Below the pieces are notes generated by a model that was not told the origin of the DNA, ran no database searches, and worked only from the letters and a program-made list of their open reading frames with translations. The position numbers and the translations under genes are program-made. Positions 20,151-54,095 of a DNA stretch of 64,000 nucleotides are shown piece by piece. Where the stretch lies: IMG/VR virus record IMGVR_UViG_3300033463_006479, positions 128,464-192,463 of that record. One strand, written 5' to 3'. Positions within the stretch are counted from its first letter, which is position 1, and every line of letters begins with the position of its first letter. The stretch comes from a virus. Taxonomy: Duplodnaviria; Caudoviricetes.

Positions 20151-21209
20151 TTGATGAAGATATTAAGTTCAAAAGATTTCGCAAGTTTACACGAAAAACT
20201 CGACATACGTCCAATCACAAAGGATATGCTTTCCGATATGTCAGATGAACGCATATTGAAAGAGAAAATGCACGCAAGGAAAGACACGAAAGAATATGCT
20301 GAATTTATCTGGTACACATATGCAAAGATACAGAAAAGAATAATTGAAGGGAACTATAAAGTTGAGGTATCTGGCAAATTGACATTAAAAGGCGAACTTG
20401 GATATACTCACAACCAAGAAAATATATGGATTGTCGAATTGCCGTTAATATCAAGCAATGTGTATAAAATAAAAGATTTGACGGATTACGAATGTTCTCC
20501 GTATTGGCCGAAACCGCCATATCATATTTGGATAACATCAGCAGAAAACGCATATTCCGATGAGGTAAAAAAGGATGTGTGGAAAAAAATCGGAATGGAA
20601 CTGAAACCAATATATGAACTCGTTGCAGACAAAAATGGGTTATACAACAAAAAAATAACAGATGCTATAACATTAAAATTCAATAAAGCAAACTGGGGGA
20701 TAAATGCGCATCAAGAATTGATAGATGGACTTGAAAATGCGATAGGTGACGTGAATGTGAAATTGCAATATACAGTCAGAGGTTTGGGTGATAACACAAT
20801 AGAGCCAATTGTATATATATGTTTGAATAAAAACGAAAAGGGTATAGATAGGCATAGCAGCAATGTCTTTTGGTTCGATTTAAGTTATGGTAAAATAGAA
20901 TGCAGAAATATGCCGCATTTGTATCTGTCGCCGTTTGACAAAAGCGGAAATAATCCATTTAATCCGAGTTTGAAATATTTGGCTATGCGAAGTTCTGATA
21001 ATTTGCTGAAAGAATGTGGTATGAAACCTTGGAGAAAGGTATCTTACAAAACACCGCAAGATGTCATAAACAAAATATCAAGATATGTGAACGACAGCAT
21101 ACGTCTTATGGACATATATTGTGGAACGAATGTCAAATTGTTAGGCGGAAAAGATATGATTGGCGTTTTGGACATATCAATCGCTGATGCGAATATGGAA
21201 AATATATAA
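20151..21209 (+). CDS. hypothetical protein, EKLDIRPITK leader family
   Basis: MMKILSSKDFASLHEKLDIRPITK; TATAAATA at 20125. Confidence 0.75.
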   Translation: MMKILSSKDFASLHEKLDIRPITKDMLSDMSDERILKEKMHARKDTKEYAEFIWYTYAKIQKRIIEGNYKVEVSGKLTLKGELGYTHNQENIWIVELPLISSNVYKIKDLTDYECSPYWPKPPYHIWITSAENAYSDEVKKDVWKKIGMELKPIYELVADKNGLYNKKITDAITLKFNKANWGINAHQELIDGLENAIGDVNVKLQYTVRGLGDNTIEPIVYICLNKNEKGIDRHSSNVFWFDLSYGKIECRNMPHLYLSPFDKSGNNPFNPSLKYLAMRSSDNLLKECGMKPWRKVSYKTPQDVINKISRYVNDSIRLMDIYCGTNVKLLGGKDMIGVLDISIADANMENI

Positions 21210-21214
21210 TAAAA

Positions 21215-21448
21215 ATGAGTACGATACTTGCACTTGAAGAATTTATAGTGGAAAACGACAATGAACTTTTTTTGGAAGTTCTCGAACACTTCAAAAAACA
21301 ATATCCGAGAAGAAGGATTGAAGTCAAAAGATACGGCTATGGAAACATAGTGAGCATTGACGGTGAGGACAAATTCAATACGAGCGGTTACAACCTGCTC
21401 TATAATATTAAACGTCTGTGCGATTGCCTTGAAGATGAATTGATTTAA
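21215..21448 (+). CDS. small hypothetical protein
   Basis: Tight operon packing; LEEFIVE leader. Confidence 0.65.
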   Translation: MSTILALEEFIVENDNELFLEVLEHFKKQYPRRRIEVKRYGYGNIVSIDGEDKFNTSGYNLLYNIKRLCDCLEDELI

Positions 21449-21450
21449 TT

Positions 21451-21963
21451 ATGATGAAGATATTGAAAGCAGCCGATTACATTGGTGAGAAACTCACAAT
21501 AAAGCCAGTTACAAAAACGAGATTGTCGGATATAAAGAAAGCCAACAGCGAGCGGCACACATATAGGATAGCCGAATGTGAGGTTATTATGGCTGAAGAT
21601 AATTATGTCAATGGCGAGGATGAGGGTATATCTTTTCCATTTGTGATAACTCATATTAAAACAGCAAACAGTTTGGAAAACCTTTTGCGCAACTTCAATG
21701 ATGATGTTTGCCGTGGTCACGCATTTGATATTGAAGATTTTGTTTATGACACAGAAACTGACGGTAGAGTTGATATGTCTGTTACAAGTATGTTGATAAC
21801 AACAAATTTCAATTTCAAAGAACCTACACAAAATGATTGGGAAAGATTCAAAGAAGGCAAAATCAATATGACATCGCTAATATTCCAACTTCTCATAGAG
21901 AAAGACGAATTTGTTGATGACATATCAGAAGATTGTGAAAAAATAGGTATTATAAGTAGGTAG
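21451..21963 (+). CDS. hypothetical protein, EKLTIKPVTK leader family
   Basis: MMKILKAADYIGEKLTIKPVTKTRL. Confidence 0.75.
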   Translation: MMKILKAADYIGEKLTIKPVTKTRLSDIKKANSERHTYRIAECEVIMAEDNYVNGEDEGISFPFVITHIKTANSLENLLRNFNDDVCRGHAFDIEDFVYDTETDGRVDMSVTSMLITTNFNFKEPTQNDWERFKEGKINMTSLIFQLLIEKDEFVDDISEDCEKIGIISR

Positions 21964-21987
21964 TGTTTTATACATTGCAAAAAATAA

Positions 21988-22459
21988 CGGAATTATCCCT
22001 TTTAGTCTTGTAACACGCTTTTATAAATATACAAGAAAAATATAAACTTGAATTATGACACATATTAAAAGAATCAATGAAATGAACCAACAAATTTTTC
22101 TAAAAAATTTGGATGATTTCAAAATACATATCACAAGTGTTGATGTTTATGATAAACATATCAAAACCGACATTAAAAATGGAGATATGATGGATTTTGA
22201 TACATTTTCTGTAAAATGCAACAATATAGATAAATATGGCGGTCATTATAGTGTTGAAATTGACAAAAAGGATGAAAATACTTATGTTGTTGTTTGTATT
22301 GATGATGAAGGTAGTGTTTCTTGCGAAATTGCATTTACAATTATTTACTTTAATCCAAATTCGGCAGATGACATTTTTACTTGTATGATAAATCGTTCAA
22401 ATGTTTTACGTTAATCGTATAACAAGAATTGCATTACAAGACTAAAAGGGATAATTCCG
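21988..22459 (+). mobile_element. non-autonomous cassette bounded by a perfect 26-bp inverted repeat shared with the tnpB element
   Basis: CGGAATTATCCCTTTTAGTCTTGTAA (21988-22013) and its exact reverse complement (22434-22459). Confidence 0.8.
22055..22414 (+). CDS. hypothetical cargo protein (HIKRINE leader)
   Basis: 119-aa ORF after TATAAATA at 22022. Confidence 0.75.
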   Translation: MTHIKRINEMNQQIFLKNLDDFKIHITSVDVYDKHIKTDIKNGDMMDFDTFSVKCNNIDKYGGHYSVEIDKKDENTYVVVCIDDEGSVSCEIAFTIIYFNPNSADDIFTCMINRSNVLR

Positions 22460-22521
22460 AAAAAGAATAACCGACCTGGCAAGGAAACAAAATTTCCATT
22501 GGTGAGCGTATCACCGAAAAG

Positions 22522-22548
22522 AAAAAGCCTCCGATTTGGAGGCTTTTT
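22522..22548. terminator. bidirectional intrinsic terminator
   Basis: AAAAAGCCTCC-GATTT-GGAGGCTTTTT between convergent genes. Confidence 0.88.
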
Positions 22549-22580
22549 CAATTAATGGAAAGATTTGAAAAATTCAGAAA

Positions 22581-23322: not shown

Positions 23323-24669
23323 TCAGTTTTTCAATGATTTTTTCAGTGATTTCAAGTCATCAAGGTACATATCGGCAGGAACTCGCTTCTTCATAATTTC
23401 AAGTTCCAGTTTCTTGGCATCGTATTCTTTGAGCAATTCGGCATAGCGTTCTTTTGTGAGCGAGTATATCGGCATATTTATGAGATAGTCAAATGAATTT
23501 GAAACCTTGTCAAACTTTTTGTTTTCAAGCCAATCGCAAATTTCTTTTTTAGGAACATTGCTGACTTTAAGTTTTTTGTCAATTATTGCCTTTATGAATT
23601 TTGCACGATTTCCGAGAATAAGGATTTCCTTCATAAGCATATCTATAATATGTTTCTTCCGTTTCTCGTACCAAGAAAGTCTGAACTTGCAGAAATACGG
23701 TATGATATCCTCGGCTCTTTCAAACTGCAAAAGTCTGTCATTTTCATCAACCGATATTATGATTTCTGTTTCAGAGCTGTTTACACGCAAAACCGATTCC
23801 AGTTTGTTTGTGTCTATAAGTTCTTTCAATGCGGCTCGTGTGAATTTGAGAACATAATCAACGCCAGACGAACTGTTGTTCTCATAATCAACAATCACTT
23901 TTTTGTCAATCAAAGAATCAAGGTATTCTTCATATTTCTCAAAAGTTATCGCTGGCGGCAAATCGGTTACACGGACAGTTGTCGTATTGACAATTTTATA
24001 AATGCCAGATATATTCCACTTGTTAGGGTTGTCATTGTCACGAACAAATGTGCCGCCAAATTCAGAAAGCCAAGGTTTCAGTTCCTTTACTTTTTTATTG
24101 TTGAGAAATGCTATGCAGGCATCAACAACATCCTCTGGGTTTCTGTTGAGAATATTTGTTGAAAAGCCTACAGCAATTCCAGAACTGCCGTTCAACAATA
24201 TTGTCGGTATGATTGGAAGAAAGAACAATGGTTCAATTTCATAACCTTCTTCCATTCGTTTTTCAAGCAATTCAAAATCCTTATAAAGAAGTCTGAAGTT
24301 TTTTGAAAGTTTAGTTCCTATATATCTCGGAGCACCAGCATCTGGAACACGCAGGCTTCCGTATTGGCCGTGGCCTTCAAGAAGCGGTAGGCTGTTCTTG
24401 AATGTCTGTCCCATATTGGTTATGGCATCGTTCATACTTTTGTCGCCGTGAGCGTAAAGGGCAAGCGAAGAAACCTCACCGCCAAGCTGATAAACCTTCA
24501 TTGGTTTCTCATTGCCAGTTTTCCATATTTTGTTGGCGATGAAAATTATCTTTCGCTGAACTGGTTTTAACCCATCAATGCAACTTGGTATGGCACGGTC
24601 TTCAATGACCGACTTTGCAAAAAGAAGTTGGTCAACGTCAAGAAAGTTGTCTATTGTTCGTGTTCTCAT
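23323..24669 (-). CDS. DNA topoisomerase II medium subunit (T4 gp52-like)
   Basis: RAIPSCIDGLKPVQRK, YAHGD, GAPRY catalytic Tyr, NGSSGIAVGF. Confidence 0.95.
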   Translation of the reverse strand: MRTRTIDNFLDVDQLLFAKSVIEDRAIPSCIDGLKPVQRKIIFIANKIWKTGNEKPMKVYQLGGEVSSLALYAHGDKSMNDAITNMGQTFKNSLPLLEGHGQYGSLRVPDAGAPRYIGTKLSKNFRLLYKDFELLEKRMEEGYEIEPLFFLPIIPTILLNGSSGIAVGFSTNILNRNPEDVVDACIAFLNNKKVKELKPWLSEFGGTFVRDNDNPNKWNISGIYKIVNTTTVRVTDLPPAITFEKYEEYLDSLIDKKVIVDYENNSSSGVDYVLKFTRAALKELIDTNKLESVLRVNSSETEIIISVDENDRLLQFERAEDIIPYFCKFRLSWYEKRKKHIIDMLMKEILILGNRAKFIKAIIDKKLKVSNVPKKEICDWLENKKFDKVSNSFDYLINMPIYSLTKERYAELLKEYDAKKLELEIMKKRVPADMYLDDLKSLKKSLKN

Positions 24670-25831: not shown

Positions 25832-25857
25832 TTTTCAAAAATATGTTTCCTTATTTA

Positions 25858-27182
25858 CGAAATTATCCCTTTTATTCTTGTATTATTTATAAGACTTCAA
25901 GTTCAATAGTCGCTTCGTTGCTGTCCGATTGTTCACCAGTTTTATTGGGTCTTGCAAACGGTTGGTACACAGCTCCACGACCGTACTCGGCATTCCTTGC
26001 CGAGATATGTCTCTGCCATTCGTCTGGTTCATATTGTTCGTTGTTCTTCGCCGCATTGATGTCTCTGTCGTGATGAGCACCACAGTTCGGACAAGTCCAA
26101 TATCTTACTGCCAGATTTTTGACTTTCTTGTTTATATAACCGCACTCGCTGCACATCTGGCTTGACGGATAATATCTGTCAACTTTCATCATAGTCTTGC
26201 CGTTCCAAGCACATTTGTATTCAAGTGTCTGAACGAACTGATACCAGTTGCATTCGGATATGGATTCAGCAAGTTTGTGATTTTTCATCATACCTTTTAC
26301 ATTCAAATCCTCAACTTTTATCAAGTCATAAGTTTTGACCAGTTCTGCGGTTATCTTATGTATGTAGTCAGTTTTGATGTCTGTGATTTTCTGGTAGATT
26401 CGGTTGCATTTCAATACTTGGTTTTCATATCTCTTGCTTCCATAGACCTTCCTTGCCAGACATCTCTGATATTTTTTCAGTTTTCTTTTGTAATATCTGA
26501 TTATGCTTCGTTTGCTTGCATATTTGAATCCCTTGCTTGTGATTATAAGTTCCTTTATTCCGAGGTCAAGACCTACACGTTCATAAGTTTTGTTTCTTGG
26601 TGTGTAGTCCTGCTTGACCGTTATCGCTATGTAGTATCTGCCAGCCTTGTTTTTTGATATTGTGGCAAAGCAGATTTTACCTACAATTCCACGCTCCATA
26701 ACTATGTCTATTCCGCTTTTGAGCTTCGGAATGTATAGTTTGTTATCCTTGATATGAAATGTGTTAGGCTGTGCAATCTTGAACGACTGCTTGTCTCTTC
26801 TGTTCTTGAACTTCGGATAGGAGCTTCTGTGCTTGTAGAAATTGTCATACGCAGTATGCATATTCTTCAAACTGCATTGCAAAGACTGCAAAGGAACAAT
26901 GTTCAAGAACTCAAATCCTTCAAACTTGCGGATTTCTGTTAATTTACCAGACTGCACATTGTATGAATCACTTGTCTTTGCTTCATCATACTGTTTTTTT
27001 TTCTCGTTTAGAAAATGGTTGTACACAAACCTGCAACATCCGAACACATTGGCAAGATAAACTTGCTGCTCCTTGTTCGGATACAACCTAAACTTGTACG
27101 TGTACATTCTCTCCATCTGATTAAAACACTATACCATATTTATATTACTCACATTTTTACAAGACTGAAATGGATAATTCCA
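25858..27182 (-). mobile_element. tnpB-only IS607/IS1341-like element with imperfect 26-bp inverted ends
   Basis: Ends at 25858-25883 and 27157-27182, each 3 mismatches from the 21988 repeat; no tnpA inside. Confidence 0.82.
25887..27116 (-). CDS. tnpB: TnpB RNA-guided endonuclease
   Basis: YKFRLYPNKEQ HTH, GLDLG (D), VEDL (E), CSECG/CPNCG Zn ribbon, DRDINAAKN (D). Confidence 0.96.
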   Translation of the reverse strand: MERMYTYKFRLYPNKEQQVYLANVFGCCRFVYNHFLNEKKKQYDEAKTSDSYNVQSGKLTEIRKFEGFEFLNIVPLQSLQCSLKNMHTAYDNFYKHRSSYPKFKNRRDKQSFKIAQPNTFHIKDNKLYIPKLKSGIDIVMERGIVGKICFATISKNKAGRYYIAITVKQDYTPRNKTYERVGLDLGIKELIITSKGFKYASKRSIIRYYKRKLKKYQRCLARKVYGSKRYENQVLKCNRIYQKITDIKTDYIHKITAELVKTYDLIKVEDLNVKGMMKNHKLAESISECNWYQFVQTLEYKCAWNGKTMMKVDRYYPSSQMCSECGYINKKVKNLAVRYWTCPNCGAHHDRDINAAKNNEQYEPDEWQRHISARNAEYGRGAVYQPFARPNKTGEQSDSNEATIELEVL

Positions 27183-27193
27183 TTTATATGTGC

Positions 27194-28180
27194 CTATTTG
27201 ACATCAGCAACAGTATAGTACACATTGCTGATAAACATTTTCGGGATTGCAGTGAACGTATAGCACGCATTTTTTATTTCTGGTGCGGCGTTGTCACGCC
27301 AAAAATCAATGACAATATCATCATCGCCTTGTTTGCCACGTGGGTCAATTTCAATTATAGCATAGTTATGAATATGTTTCATATCTATAATTTTTCGCAA
27401 ATTGGAGATTGTATCTTCTTTTGTATCACATCTTCCACACAAGAAAATCTTTTCTGGAAAATACCTGTAACCAGTTTGCGATTTAGAATCTGATTGCGAC
27501 CTAACACGACCGACTTTTGGTCGGAGTCCAACACGCATTATGCTGTTAATGTTTTTTATATCTGTTATATGATAGACATATTGGTTTCTTTTTATTTCGT
27601 CATTTATACATTCAGTATAATATGGCTCAATAAAAACTGTAAGTTTCCCATTAACTGATTCTATAATAGTTATATAATAAAGATACAACTCCAATAAATC
27701 ATATAATTTATCGGACATTGGTGATGACAACAACATATTTGTTCCAACACAAGTATCATCTACAATAGAACAATTTGAACTGAACGATATGCTTATTGTA
27801 TCTATATCATTAGCTACATTATCGTCATAACCGCACACAGCATTATATTCGGAAACAAGTAAGTTTATTTTGTCAATAAGGGGTTTTGCGTTATGTGTGC
27901 GTAACGATTCATTAATATTAATTATGTGATTTATATGCCCGCACATAGGCCGTTCCCGTATTCCAGACCATTGCCAGTTTTTACTGTAGTAATAACCAAG
28001 AGCATAATCAACAATCTCGTCATCTGAATTTTTTTCATCAATATGGCTTAAATCAAAAAACTCTTCAATTGTACGGAAATCATAACCCTCTTGTATTGAA
28101 GATAGTCGCAACGGTATATTTGAATATTTTTCGTAATCCGTTTTCATAATAAATTTCATTTGATTTTTTATCCATATCAT
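27194..28180 (-). CDS. hypothetical protein with C-terminal ADP-ribosyltransferase-like motif
   Basis: YVYHITD..NINSIMRVGLRPK...KIFL. Confidence 0.5.
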   Translation of the reverse strand: MIWIKNQMKFIMKTDYEKYSNIPLRLSSIQEGYDFRTIEEFFDLSHIDEKNSDDEIVDYALGYYYSKNWQWSGIRERPMCGHINHIININESLRTHNAKPLIDKINLLVSEYNAVCGYDDNVANDIDTISISFSSNCSIVDDTCVGTNMLLSSPMSDKLYDLLELYLYYITIIESVNGKLTVFIEPYYTECINDEIKRNQYVYHITDIKNINSIMRVGLRPKVGRVRSQSDSKSQTGYRYFPEKIFLCGRCDTKEDTISNLRKIIDMKHIHNYAIIEIDPRGKQGDDDIVIDFWRDNAAPEIKNACYTFTAIPKMFISNVYYTVADVK

Positions 28181-53180: not shown

Positions 53181-53804
53181 TTATGATTGCTTTTTGTACA
53201 GTTCCAAAAATTCTTCAACGCTGATTACGTGAAGAATGTTGTCTCGGTCTGCAATCATTTCATCATAAGTCAATTTTGATTTATTGGGAAACACTAAATC
53301 TTGTGGATTTTCGTGGTATTCAATAATGCAGCATCCGCAGTCGGTATCAACCGTCTTGAAATCAATGCCCTGCTCGTGCAGCATAGTTATAGCCTTCCAA
53401 ACGTCACCATTCCAACCGCCGACAATCCTCGGAACAAGTTGAGCCTCATAGTTGAGCGGTATGCAATCGTGTACTACAATACGCCCGCCCTTGTTCAAAT
53501 GTTTCAATCCGTTGATAATATCCCTTCCAGCAAAATCCTCTTTGTGCATACCATCAACAAAAATTATGTCAAACTTCTGCTCGGTCTGTGCAAACAGTTC
53601 GTCAGATGTCATACGCCAAGTCAGACAAGGCGGAATCATATCCTCGTTTTGTATCAAGTCTTTGAACTCTGTGAACGGGTCAACGCAGTATTTGTTCTCA
53701 CATTCAACAAAAACAAAACAGCGGCCATCATCCAATCCTATTTCAAGGTAACTATTGTAGTTGTTTTGTTTAATCAAATAGTTTATTATGTCTGTGTGAT
53801 TCAC
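53181..53804 (-). CDS. class I SAM-dependent methyltransferase (Methyltransf_24-like)
   Basis: SYLEIG, FDIIFVDGMH, IVVHDC; GTG start abuts element end. Confidence 0.85.
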   Translation of the reverse strand: MNHTDIINYLIKQNNYNSYLEIGLDDGRCFVFVECENKYCVDPFTEFKDLIQNEDMIPPCLTWRMTSDELFAQTEQKFDIIFVDGMHKEDFAGRDIINGLKHLNKGGRIVVHDCIPLNYEAQLVPRIVGGWNGDVWKAITMLHEQGIDFKTVDTDCGCCIIEYHENPQDLVFPNKSKLTYDEMIADRDNILHVISVEEFLELYKKQS

Positions 53805-54095
53805 GGAATTATCCCTTTTAATTTTGTTAAACTTCAAGTTCAATAGTCGCTTCATTGCTGTCCGTTTGTTCACCAGTTTTCTTGGGTTTTGCAAACGGTT
53901 GGTTTACAGCTCCACGACCGTACTCGGCATTCCTTGCCGAGATATATCTTTGCCATTCATCTGGTTCATATTGCTCGTTGTTCTTCGCCGCATTGATGTC
54001 TCTGTCGTGATGAGCACCGCAGTTCGGGCAAGTCCAATATCTTACACCCAGATTTTTGACTTTCTTGTTTATGTAACCACATTCGGAACACATTT
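53804..54095 (-). pseudogene. tnpB: tnpB 3' remnant retaining the omegaRNA and right end
   Basis: Near-identical to 25895-26160; 26-bp end at 53804-53829. Confidence 0.9.

Follow-up and report, generated by a model that had tools for sequence, protein, structure and literature searches.

The window analysed here is 64 kb long and comprises the final part of a 192-kb IMG/VR contig, estimated to be 70% complete. It contains a 472-bp unit bracketed by a perfect 26-nt inverted repeat, the two arms of which are 100% complementary and separated by 420 nt (Table 1). From left to right, the unit consists of the repeat (26 nt), a spacer (8 nt), a promoter box (8 nt), a leader (25 nt), an ORF (360 nt), a second spacer (19 nt) and the opposite repeat (26 nt). 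The passenger between the repeats is one 119-aa ORF, and the ORF listing of the unit includes no transposase gene. The GC-rich hairpin that follows, as read from the sequence, is probably a two-way terminator serving both the cargo gene and a convergent 62-aa gene. A blastn comparison of the region of the unit with 50,697 phage records gave zero matches.

With up to three mismatches allowed, the 26-mer is found at five sites of the window (21988+, 22434-, 25858+, 27157- and 53804+), compared with 0.00 matches in shuffled sequence. The ten sites of the whole contig correspond to three full tnpB units of 1316–1325 bp, two right-end remnants and the 472-bp unit. An earlier sequence-only reading had described the perfect repeat around TATAAATA and the 119-aa gene, the occurrence of the same repeat with three mismatches per end around tnpB (25858-27182) and at the end of a remnant (53804), and the position of TATAAATA just inside the left end of both elements; all these descriptions hold. 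It had also considered that the 26-mer could occur unpaired as an ordinary operator, and the unpaired copies turn out to be truncated tnpB cassettes.

Table 1. Positions in the window of the 472-bp unit, the tnpB cassettes and their surroundings
Feature	Position	Strand	Basis
Block of 2.36 kb: three plus-strand genes, cassette and 57 bp	20154..22516	.	absent from L301-L303
Left target-site duplication copy, 8 bp (AAAAATAA)	21980..21987	.	7/8 match to 22460-22467
Left terminal inverted repeat, 26 bp	21988..22013	+	complementarity to right arm; same 26 bp ends IS1595-transposase elements
Putative T4-type late promoter box TATAAATA	22022..22029	+	sequence; 25 nt upstream of cargo ATG
Cargo gene, 119 aa, start MTHIKRINEM	22055..22414	+	ORF
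Right terminal inverted repeat, 26 bp	22434..22459	-	complementarity to left arm
Right target-site duplication copy (AAAAAGAA)	22460..22467	.	7/8 match to 21980-21987
GC-rich hairpin flanked by A and T runs	22523..22549	.	read from sequence; kept in cassette-free relatives
Right-end inverted repeat of tnpB cassette C, 3 mismatches	25858..25883	+	26-mer scan
Extra TATAAATA box pointing out through the right end of cassette C, toward a 191-aa gene	25884..25891	-	sequence
tnpB, 409 aa, ISDra2-like, RuvC D/E/D motifs present	25887..27116	-	Pfam, NCBIfam and PDB comparison
Putative tnpB late promoter box TATAAATA, just inside the left end	27137..27144	-	sequence
Left-end inverted repeat of tnpB cassette C, 3 mismatches, terminal base differs	27157..27182	-	26-mer scan
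Solo right-end inverted repeat, truncated tnpB cassette	53804..53829	+	26-mer scan
tnpB 3′ remnant, C-terminal 88 codons with the guide-RNA scaffold region	53827..54093	-	comparison with tnpB units

The 119-aa protein has no family in Pfam or NCBIfam and no relative in an IMG/VR search. Large collections of about 15 billion proteins yielded only five homologues, all of them small. Its AF2 model (pLDDT 73) has no significant fold match, and the ESM Atlas and Foldseek (PDB, BFVD) gave just weak matches, hot-dog-like or unnamed, with TM values below 0.5; no function is assigned on these grounds. Similarity of residues 41-104 to repeats of large DOMON or Big_6 proteins was too weak to be used.

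The octamer upstream of the cargo gene is distributed in this genome like a promoter box, with 33 of its 59 copies located 8–45 nt upstream of the first ATG of an ORF, compared with 3–7 copies before ORF starts for scrambled or reverse octamers. The cargo is predicted to be expressed late. The first ten residues and the 5′ leader of the cargo gene are common, at the DNA level, to unrelated cargo genes of 110–298 aa, which sit in other cassettes and inside autonomous elements. A role of MTHIKRINEM as a cassette-specific module was nevertheless ruled out. The start M-x-H-I-(K/R)-R-x-(N/D)-E is present on 23 genes, mostly outside cassettes, of a 388-kb relative (G001, IMGVR_UViG_3300031998_000001), with none in the control, and is therefore an ordinary N-terminal leader of that phage lineage. 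In the present genome the 119-aa cargo is the one gene with such a start, and other genes use a MKILK...IKPVT start. N-terminal leaders thus seem to be lineage-specific, and the 119-aa cargo looks, from its sequence, as if it had been imported from a lineage with MTHIKRINEM-type leaders.

The CTS-type internal proteins of T4 have an N-terminal leader, which is cut by the prohead protease after (L/I)-x-E, and are found in virions. The cargo leader, MTHIKRINE, ends in I-N-E and resembles such a site. A 177-aa ORF on the minus strand (G000:C1:104582-104821) has a weak, below-threshold match (E 1.2e-4) to S77, the family of the T4 prohead protease. Loading of the 119-aa protein into the capsid is possible.

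Ends shared with IS1595-family elements

The same 26 bp terminate three kinds of units in the 388-kb relative (93% complete): a tnpB unit, a 592-bp unit with a 163-aa gene, and a 3388-bp element. In the latter, the repeats extend to about 60 bp, a perfect duplication (ATTTTAAA) is present, and three other ORFs accompany the gene of a 319-aa protein with Zn_ribbon_IS1595 and DDE_Tnp_IS1595 domains. Its assignment as a transposase of the IS1595 family rests on Pfam (4.9e-33) and on NCBIfam NF033547 (181 bits, for a cut-off of 75). In another contig, the same ends bound a 1033-bp unit with a phosphoribosyltransferase gene. Transposase-bearing elements with these 26-bp ends were found at L058/L190, L149, L117, L110 and L098. 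The enzymes of the last four are 84–97% identical to the phage enzyme and are encoded just inside the ends. One MAG locus is a 2687-bp contig made of exactly one transposase element, and a 2396-bp transposase element, also from a MAG locus, has both perfect ends and a perfect duplication. Besides the transposase gene, more than one autonomous element (L058:4057-5267; L073; L294) has two further ORFs, of 158 and 229 aa and outside any Pfam family, which may be conserved accessory genes.

Five units from the 388-kb relative and related contigs are flanked by perfect 8-bp direct repeats of the surrounding DNA, and the tnpB units of relatives also have perfect 8-bp duplications. Perfect 8-bp duplications flank 33 of the 71 distinct end pairs compared, and a further seven pairs match at 7/8 positions, whereas two shifted controls gave no perfect duplication and at most one 7/8 match. 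None of the 33 perfect duplications reaches 9 bp, and the octamers are 95% A+T. Members of the IS1595 family usually bear 8-bp duplications, and their transposase combines a zinc finger with a DDE domain (PMC8101967). Since transposase-bearing elements share the ends, and since 8-bp duplications accompany them, the ends belong to an IS1595-family transposon and not to tnpB. It follows that the 119-aa gene and tnpB are both passengers of transposase-less cassettes, which reverses the earlier proposal that the ends of a tnpB element had been redeployed around an unrelated gene. The 472-bp unit, which has no transposase gene of its own, is a derivative of IS1595 and not an IS proper. Very probably it is a mobile insertion cassette with one phage gene, derived from a DDE transposon of the IS1595 family and not itself autonomous.

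The contents of these shells are varied. Besides tnpB, the 163-aa gene and the phosphoribosyltransferase gene, ORFs of 88–326 aa are found within the same ends, and empty miniature elements of 86–350 bp also exist, of which one of 118 bp is an internally deleted tnpB unit. A 2285-bp element (L186:3637-5921) with the same ends and a perfect duplication contains a different tnpB (37% identical) and two small ORFs, which suggests a second, independent tnpB capture. An apparent tendency of cassettes to abut the start or stop codons of their neighbours was abandoned after reading the flanks. The sequence-only reading of mobile cassettes that shuttle late-expressed cargo genes and are mobilised in trans is upheld in part: the cargo is interchangeable and lies behind late promoter boxes, the cassettes lack a transposase, and alternative cargoes, empty alleles and a second insertion of this cassette type were all found. 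Such cassettes would have to be moved in trans. The remark of the same reading that there was no clear target duplication is too cautious for the 472-bp unit, which retains a 7/8 match, and the duplication is clear in the family as a whole.

Scans of bacterial genomes and of metagenomes for the ends each returned at least 120 loci. Among the matches listed, most are MAGs of Bacteroidales, Paludibacteraceae and Prevotellaceae from rumen, horse faeces and gut. In true bacterial chromosomal DNA, cassettes with phage-type promoters and cargo adjoin typA, a DegT aminotransferase gene, dnaX and folD. These chromosomal loci show no similarity to the present phage, and the family is thus common to host chromosomes and phages.

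Proposed movement and age of the cassette

In the mechanism that we favour, an IS1595-family transposase made elsewhere would bind both 26-bp repeats, excise or copy the unit, and insert it at AT-rich sites through an 8-bp staggered cut. No IS1595 transposase was found in the 192-kb contig, which is 70% complete, nor in a 100%-complete 413-kb relative with five repeat copies. The source of the enzyme would therefore be an autonomous element, either of a co-infecting phage or of the Bacteroidales host. In this view, the tnpB units are sister cassettes that carry, as passenger, a tnpB of the IS200/IS605 type together with its guide-RNA scaffold. Transposition is suggested here by its footprints in the DNA; the identity of the acting enzyme is inferred, and this copy may still be able to move.

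Whether the 472-bp unit moved recently can be judged from its relatives. In the sister phage L309, which is 96.7% identical over 7.8 kb, the cassette is present at the identical site, and the insertion is thus older than the split of the two phages. The left repeat of L309 has decayed (84.6% identity, one indel), and the cassettes of the two phages are 91.5% identical, compared with 96–98% in their flanks. The perfect ends had been taken as a sign of recent movement, a view that these comparisons do not sustain: exchange or conversion is the more likely source of the perfect repeats than a recent jump. A cassette which was inserted once by an IS1595 enzyme, and which has since become fixed as an ordinary late gene with its repeats perfected by gene conversion, is an alternative. 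It bears on the activity of the unit and not on its identity, and we put it somewhat short of an even chance. Besides the shared site and the decayed repeat of L309, the missing transposase fits such a fossil, as does the fact that the duplication matches at 7/8 and not 8/8 positions. It also fits a cargo homologue (54% identical), which has kept the promoter and a decayed right repeat and has lost the left one. Against it, both repeats are intact and identical in the present genome, and the many autonomous copies in host genomes could provide the enzyme during infection. In addition, a cargo homologue (57% identical) occupies a cassette of this type at a different site, in contig L311, where this fresh-looking copy is flanked by a perfect duplication (AAATAAAT). 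The latter copy is direct evidence that the cassette type moves as a unit.

A point against the favoured reading is that comparison with more distant relatives does not reveal a clean insertion, since the cassette is part of a 2.36-kb block that is missing there. In L301-L303, whose topoisomerase is 79% identical, no repeat is present at this place and the terminator of the 62-aa gene directly precedes the promoter of a 183-aa gene. The three genes of the block have the MKILK-type leader, and the cassette lies at the block edge. This position at the edge of a variable block would also suit repeats acting as operators, as an RNA stem or as shuffling sites, with genes being swapped by homologous recombination and not by transposition. 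The non-coding ends, which diverge more than the flanks between the sister phages and suggest patchy exchange, would be in line with this, as would the tnpB copies without duplications. Such an account is nevertheless very unlikely, given the perfect 8-bp duplications of unrelated AT-rich sequence at 33 sites, and given that the same ends occur beside chromosomal housekeeping genes and around a DDE transposase. Moreover, the left repeat lies upstream of the promoter, and is thus absent from the cargo transcript and unable to pair with the right repeat as RNA. Recombination may still reshuffle existing copies.

The earlier suggestion that the ends are of the IS607 tnpB type, re-used around another gene and crossed over by a serine recombinase at a dinucleotide core, is scarcely credible: it could draw on the CG or TG at the termini, on the three tnpB cassettes without 8-bp duplications and on a serine recombinase gene in the contig, but the family makes the 8-bp duplications typical of DDE enzymes, unlike serine recombinases, the ends are symmetrical inverted repeats, the autonomous relatives encode a DDE enzyme and never a serine recombinase (none lies inside any end pair examined), TnpB scores 391 bits as IS200_TnpB (IS200/IS605 type) against 172 bits as IS607_TnpB, which is below the cut-off of 350 bits, and the only serine recombinase of the contig (320 aa, G000:C1:207-1169, at the contig start) has the resolvase topology, its catalytic domain preceding an HTH_7, is separated by about 10 kb from any repeat copy and has no tnpB beside it.

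Comparison with described elements

Elements of the IS200/IS605 group encode a Y1 TnpA, make no target duplication, and have asymmetric ends that contain subterminal hairpins but lack inverted repeats. The present family differs by its symmetrical 26-bp inverted repeats and its 8-bp duplications, only the tnpB passenger being of that type. IS607 elements encode a serine-recombinase TnpA and make no target duplication, unlike the cassettes described here. The promoter-stem-loop shuffling cassettes of T4-type phages, reportedly described by Arbiol and colleagues in 2010, are said to carry early promoters and to be exchanged by homologous recombination. They resemble the present cassettes in containing small novel genes, located in variable regions, with their own promoter and bounded by repeats. 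The late promoter, the transposase-type ends and the 8-bp duplications set the latter apart.

With the IS1595 family, the unit shares 26-bp terminal inverted repeats and, at the family level, 8-bp duplications; its autonomous relatives encode the zinc ribbon and DDE_Tnp_IS1595 domains, some with extra genes. Passenger-carrying members called 'transporter IS' are included in this family (Siguier, Gagnevin and Chandler 2009, as cited in PMC3129680). Unlike an IS proper, the present unit is without a transposase, its cargo has a putative phage late promoter, and its setting is a giant phage of lytic type. Its ends start with CGG, whereas a start with GG is quoted for Merlin, a related group of eukaryotic elements. 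Mobile insertion cassettes have been defined by IS ends, one or more passenger genes, the lack of a transposase and activation in trans (PMC3129680), the type example being MIC231 of IS231 in Bacillus cereus (De Palmenaer et al. 2004, as cited in PMC3129680). The IS-type inverted repeats around a passenger, the lack of a transposase and the presumed activation in trans by a cognate transposase are common to both. The differences from MIC231 lie in the IS family, in the single late phage genes, and in the copies common to phages and host chromosomes; for the phage cassettes, mobilisation in trans is suggested indirectly, by the second insertion with a perfect duplication and by the complete relative that has cassettes but no transposase.

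DDE-associated branches of TnpB, named DDE-1 to DDE-6, have been described together with solo TnpBs that lie within the same ends and whose movement is presumed to occur in trans (Altae-Tran et al. 2023, PMC10691335). The main text of this study names IS630, contains no occurrence of IS1595 and does not describe cargo other than tnpB in the same shells. The tnpB cassettes reported here match that description, tnpB being inside the inverted repeats of a DDE transposon with its 3′ end adjoining the transposon end; the non-tnpB cargo in the same shells goes beyond it. The Fanzor genes offer another case of a TnpB-like nuclease travelling in cut-and-paste transposons: eukaryotic DNA transposons belonging to unrelated superfamilies have taken them up, large viruses included (Bao and Jurka 2013, PMC3627910). 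Here, in contrast, the setting is a prokaryotic phage and its host, and the TnpB is an ordinary ISDra2-like one.

What is already known thus comprises DDE-borne TnpB between inverted repeats (2023), mobile insertion cassettes and IS1595 derivatives, while IS1595 cassettes that carry late genes and occur in phages as well as in hosts seem not to have been described. Lytic phage genomes are generally considered to contain few transposable elements. A single transposon family would here have given rise to minimal shells, each with a single late gene ready to be expressed, and such shells are spread over several rumen giant-phage lineages and over Bacteroidales host chromosomes. They would provide a tangible route by which huge phages exchange single genes in their variable regions, and would explain why tnpB is found between inverted repeats in these phages. 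Two 26-bp ends and one enzyme would also make a simple system, usable for gene delivery into such phages.

The tnpB cassettes of this genome

The TnpB of cassette C has the Pfam domains OrfB_IS605, Cas12f1-like TNB and HTH_OrfB_IS605, and matches the PDB entries 8bf8/8h1j with E 5e-75. In a search with a 10-nt seed, the loci of more distant TnpBs (at most about 46% identical) showed no comparable inverted repeats, and the ends are therefore specific to this clade. The absence of 8-bp duplications at all three tnpB cassettes of this genome counts against the favoured mechanism and implies either a non-canonical arrival of some copies or junctions that were later altered or recombined. For cassette C, an empty site is available in the sister phage L309 (window 25832-28176 versus L309:7760-7830). 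The filled site has only a 4–5-bp repeat (ATTTA) and an altered terminal base. As a conjecture, 4 bp across the right junction could have been lost after an 8-bp duplication had formed, which would also account for the altered base.

A conserved structured RNA, with compensatory pairs, overlaps the 3′ end of tnpB and abuts the right repeat. It corresponds to no Rfam family, only terminator look-alikes being matched. The guide-RNA scaffold meets the right inverted repeat directly, and length varies at that junction only. Because the conserved scaffold runs into the repeat in this way, the guide could perhaps be the shared repeat itself, in which case TnpB would cut the inner edge of sibling cassettes or of autonomous elements; we regard this as unlikely. 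If true, the nuclease cassettes would be competitors or converters of the other cargo cassettes, and not guards of their own empty site.

The truncated tnpB cassettes at 53804-54093 of the window and at G000:C1:24351-24480 retain, besides the right repeat, only about 100–270 nt of the conserved RNA region at the tnpB 3′ end. Either decay or a function as independent guide-RNA genes could account for them.

The outward-pointing TATAAATA box of cassette C arises from a 10–12-nt insertion seen at some right ends, namely in copies C and U1 and in the 118-bp miniature element only (25884-25891; G000:C1 about 24377-24390; L009:9340-9353). A promoter-out arrangement is possible at these ends. At its opposite side, cassette C is adjoined by an extra gene of 328 aa (27194-28180), similar to those of the 2.36-kb block.
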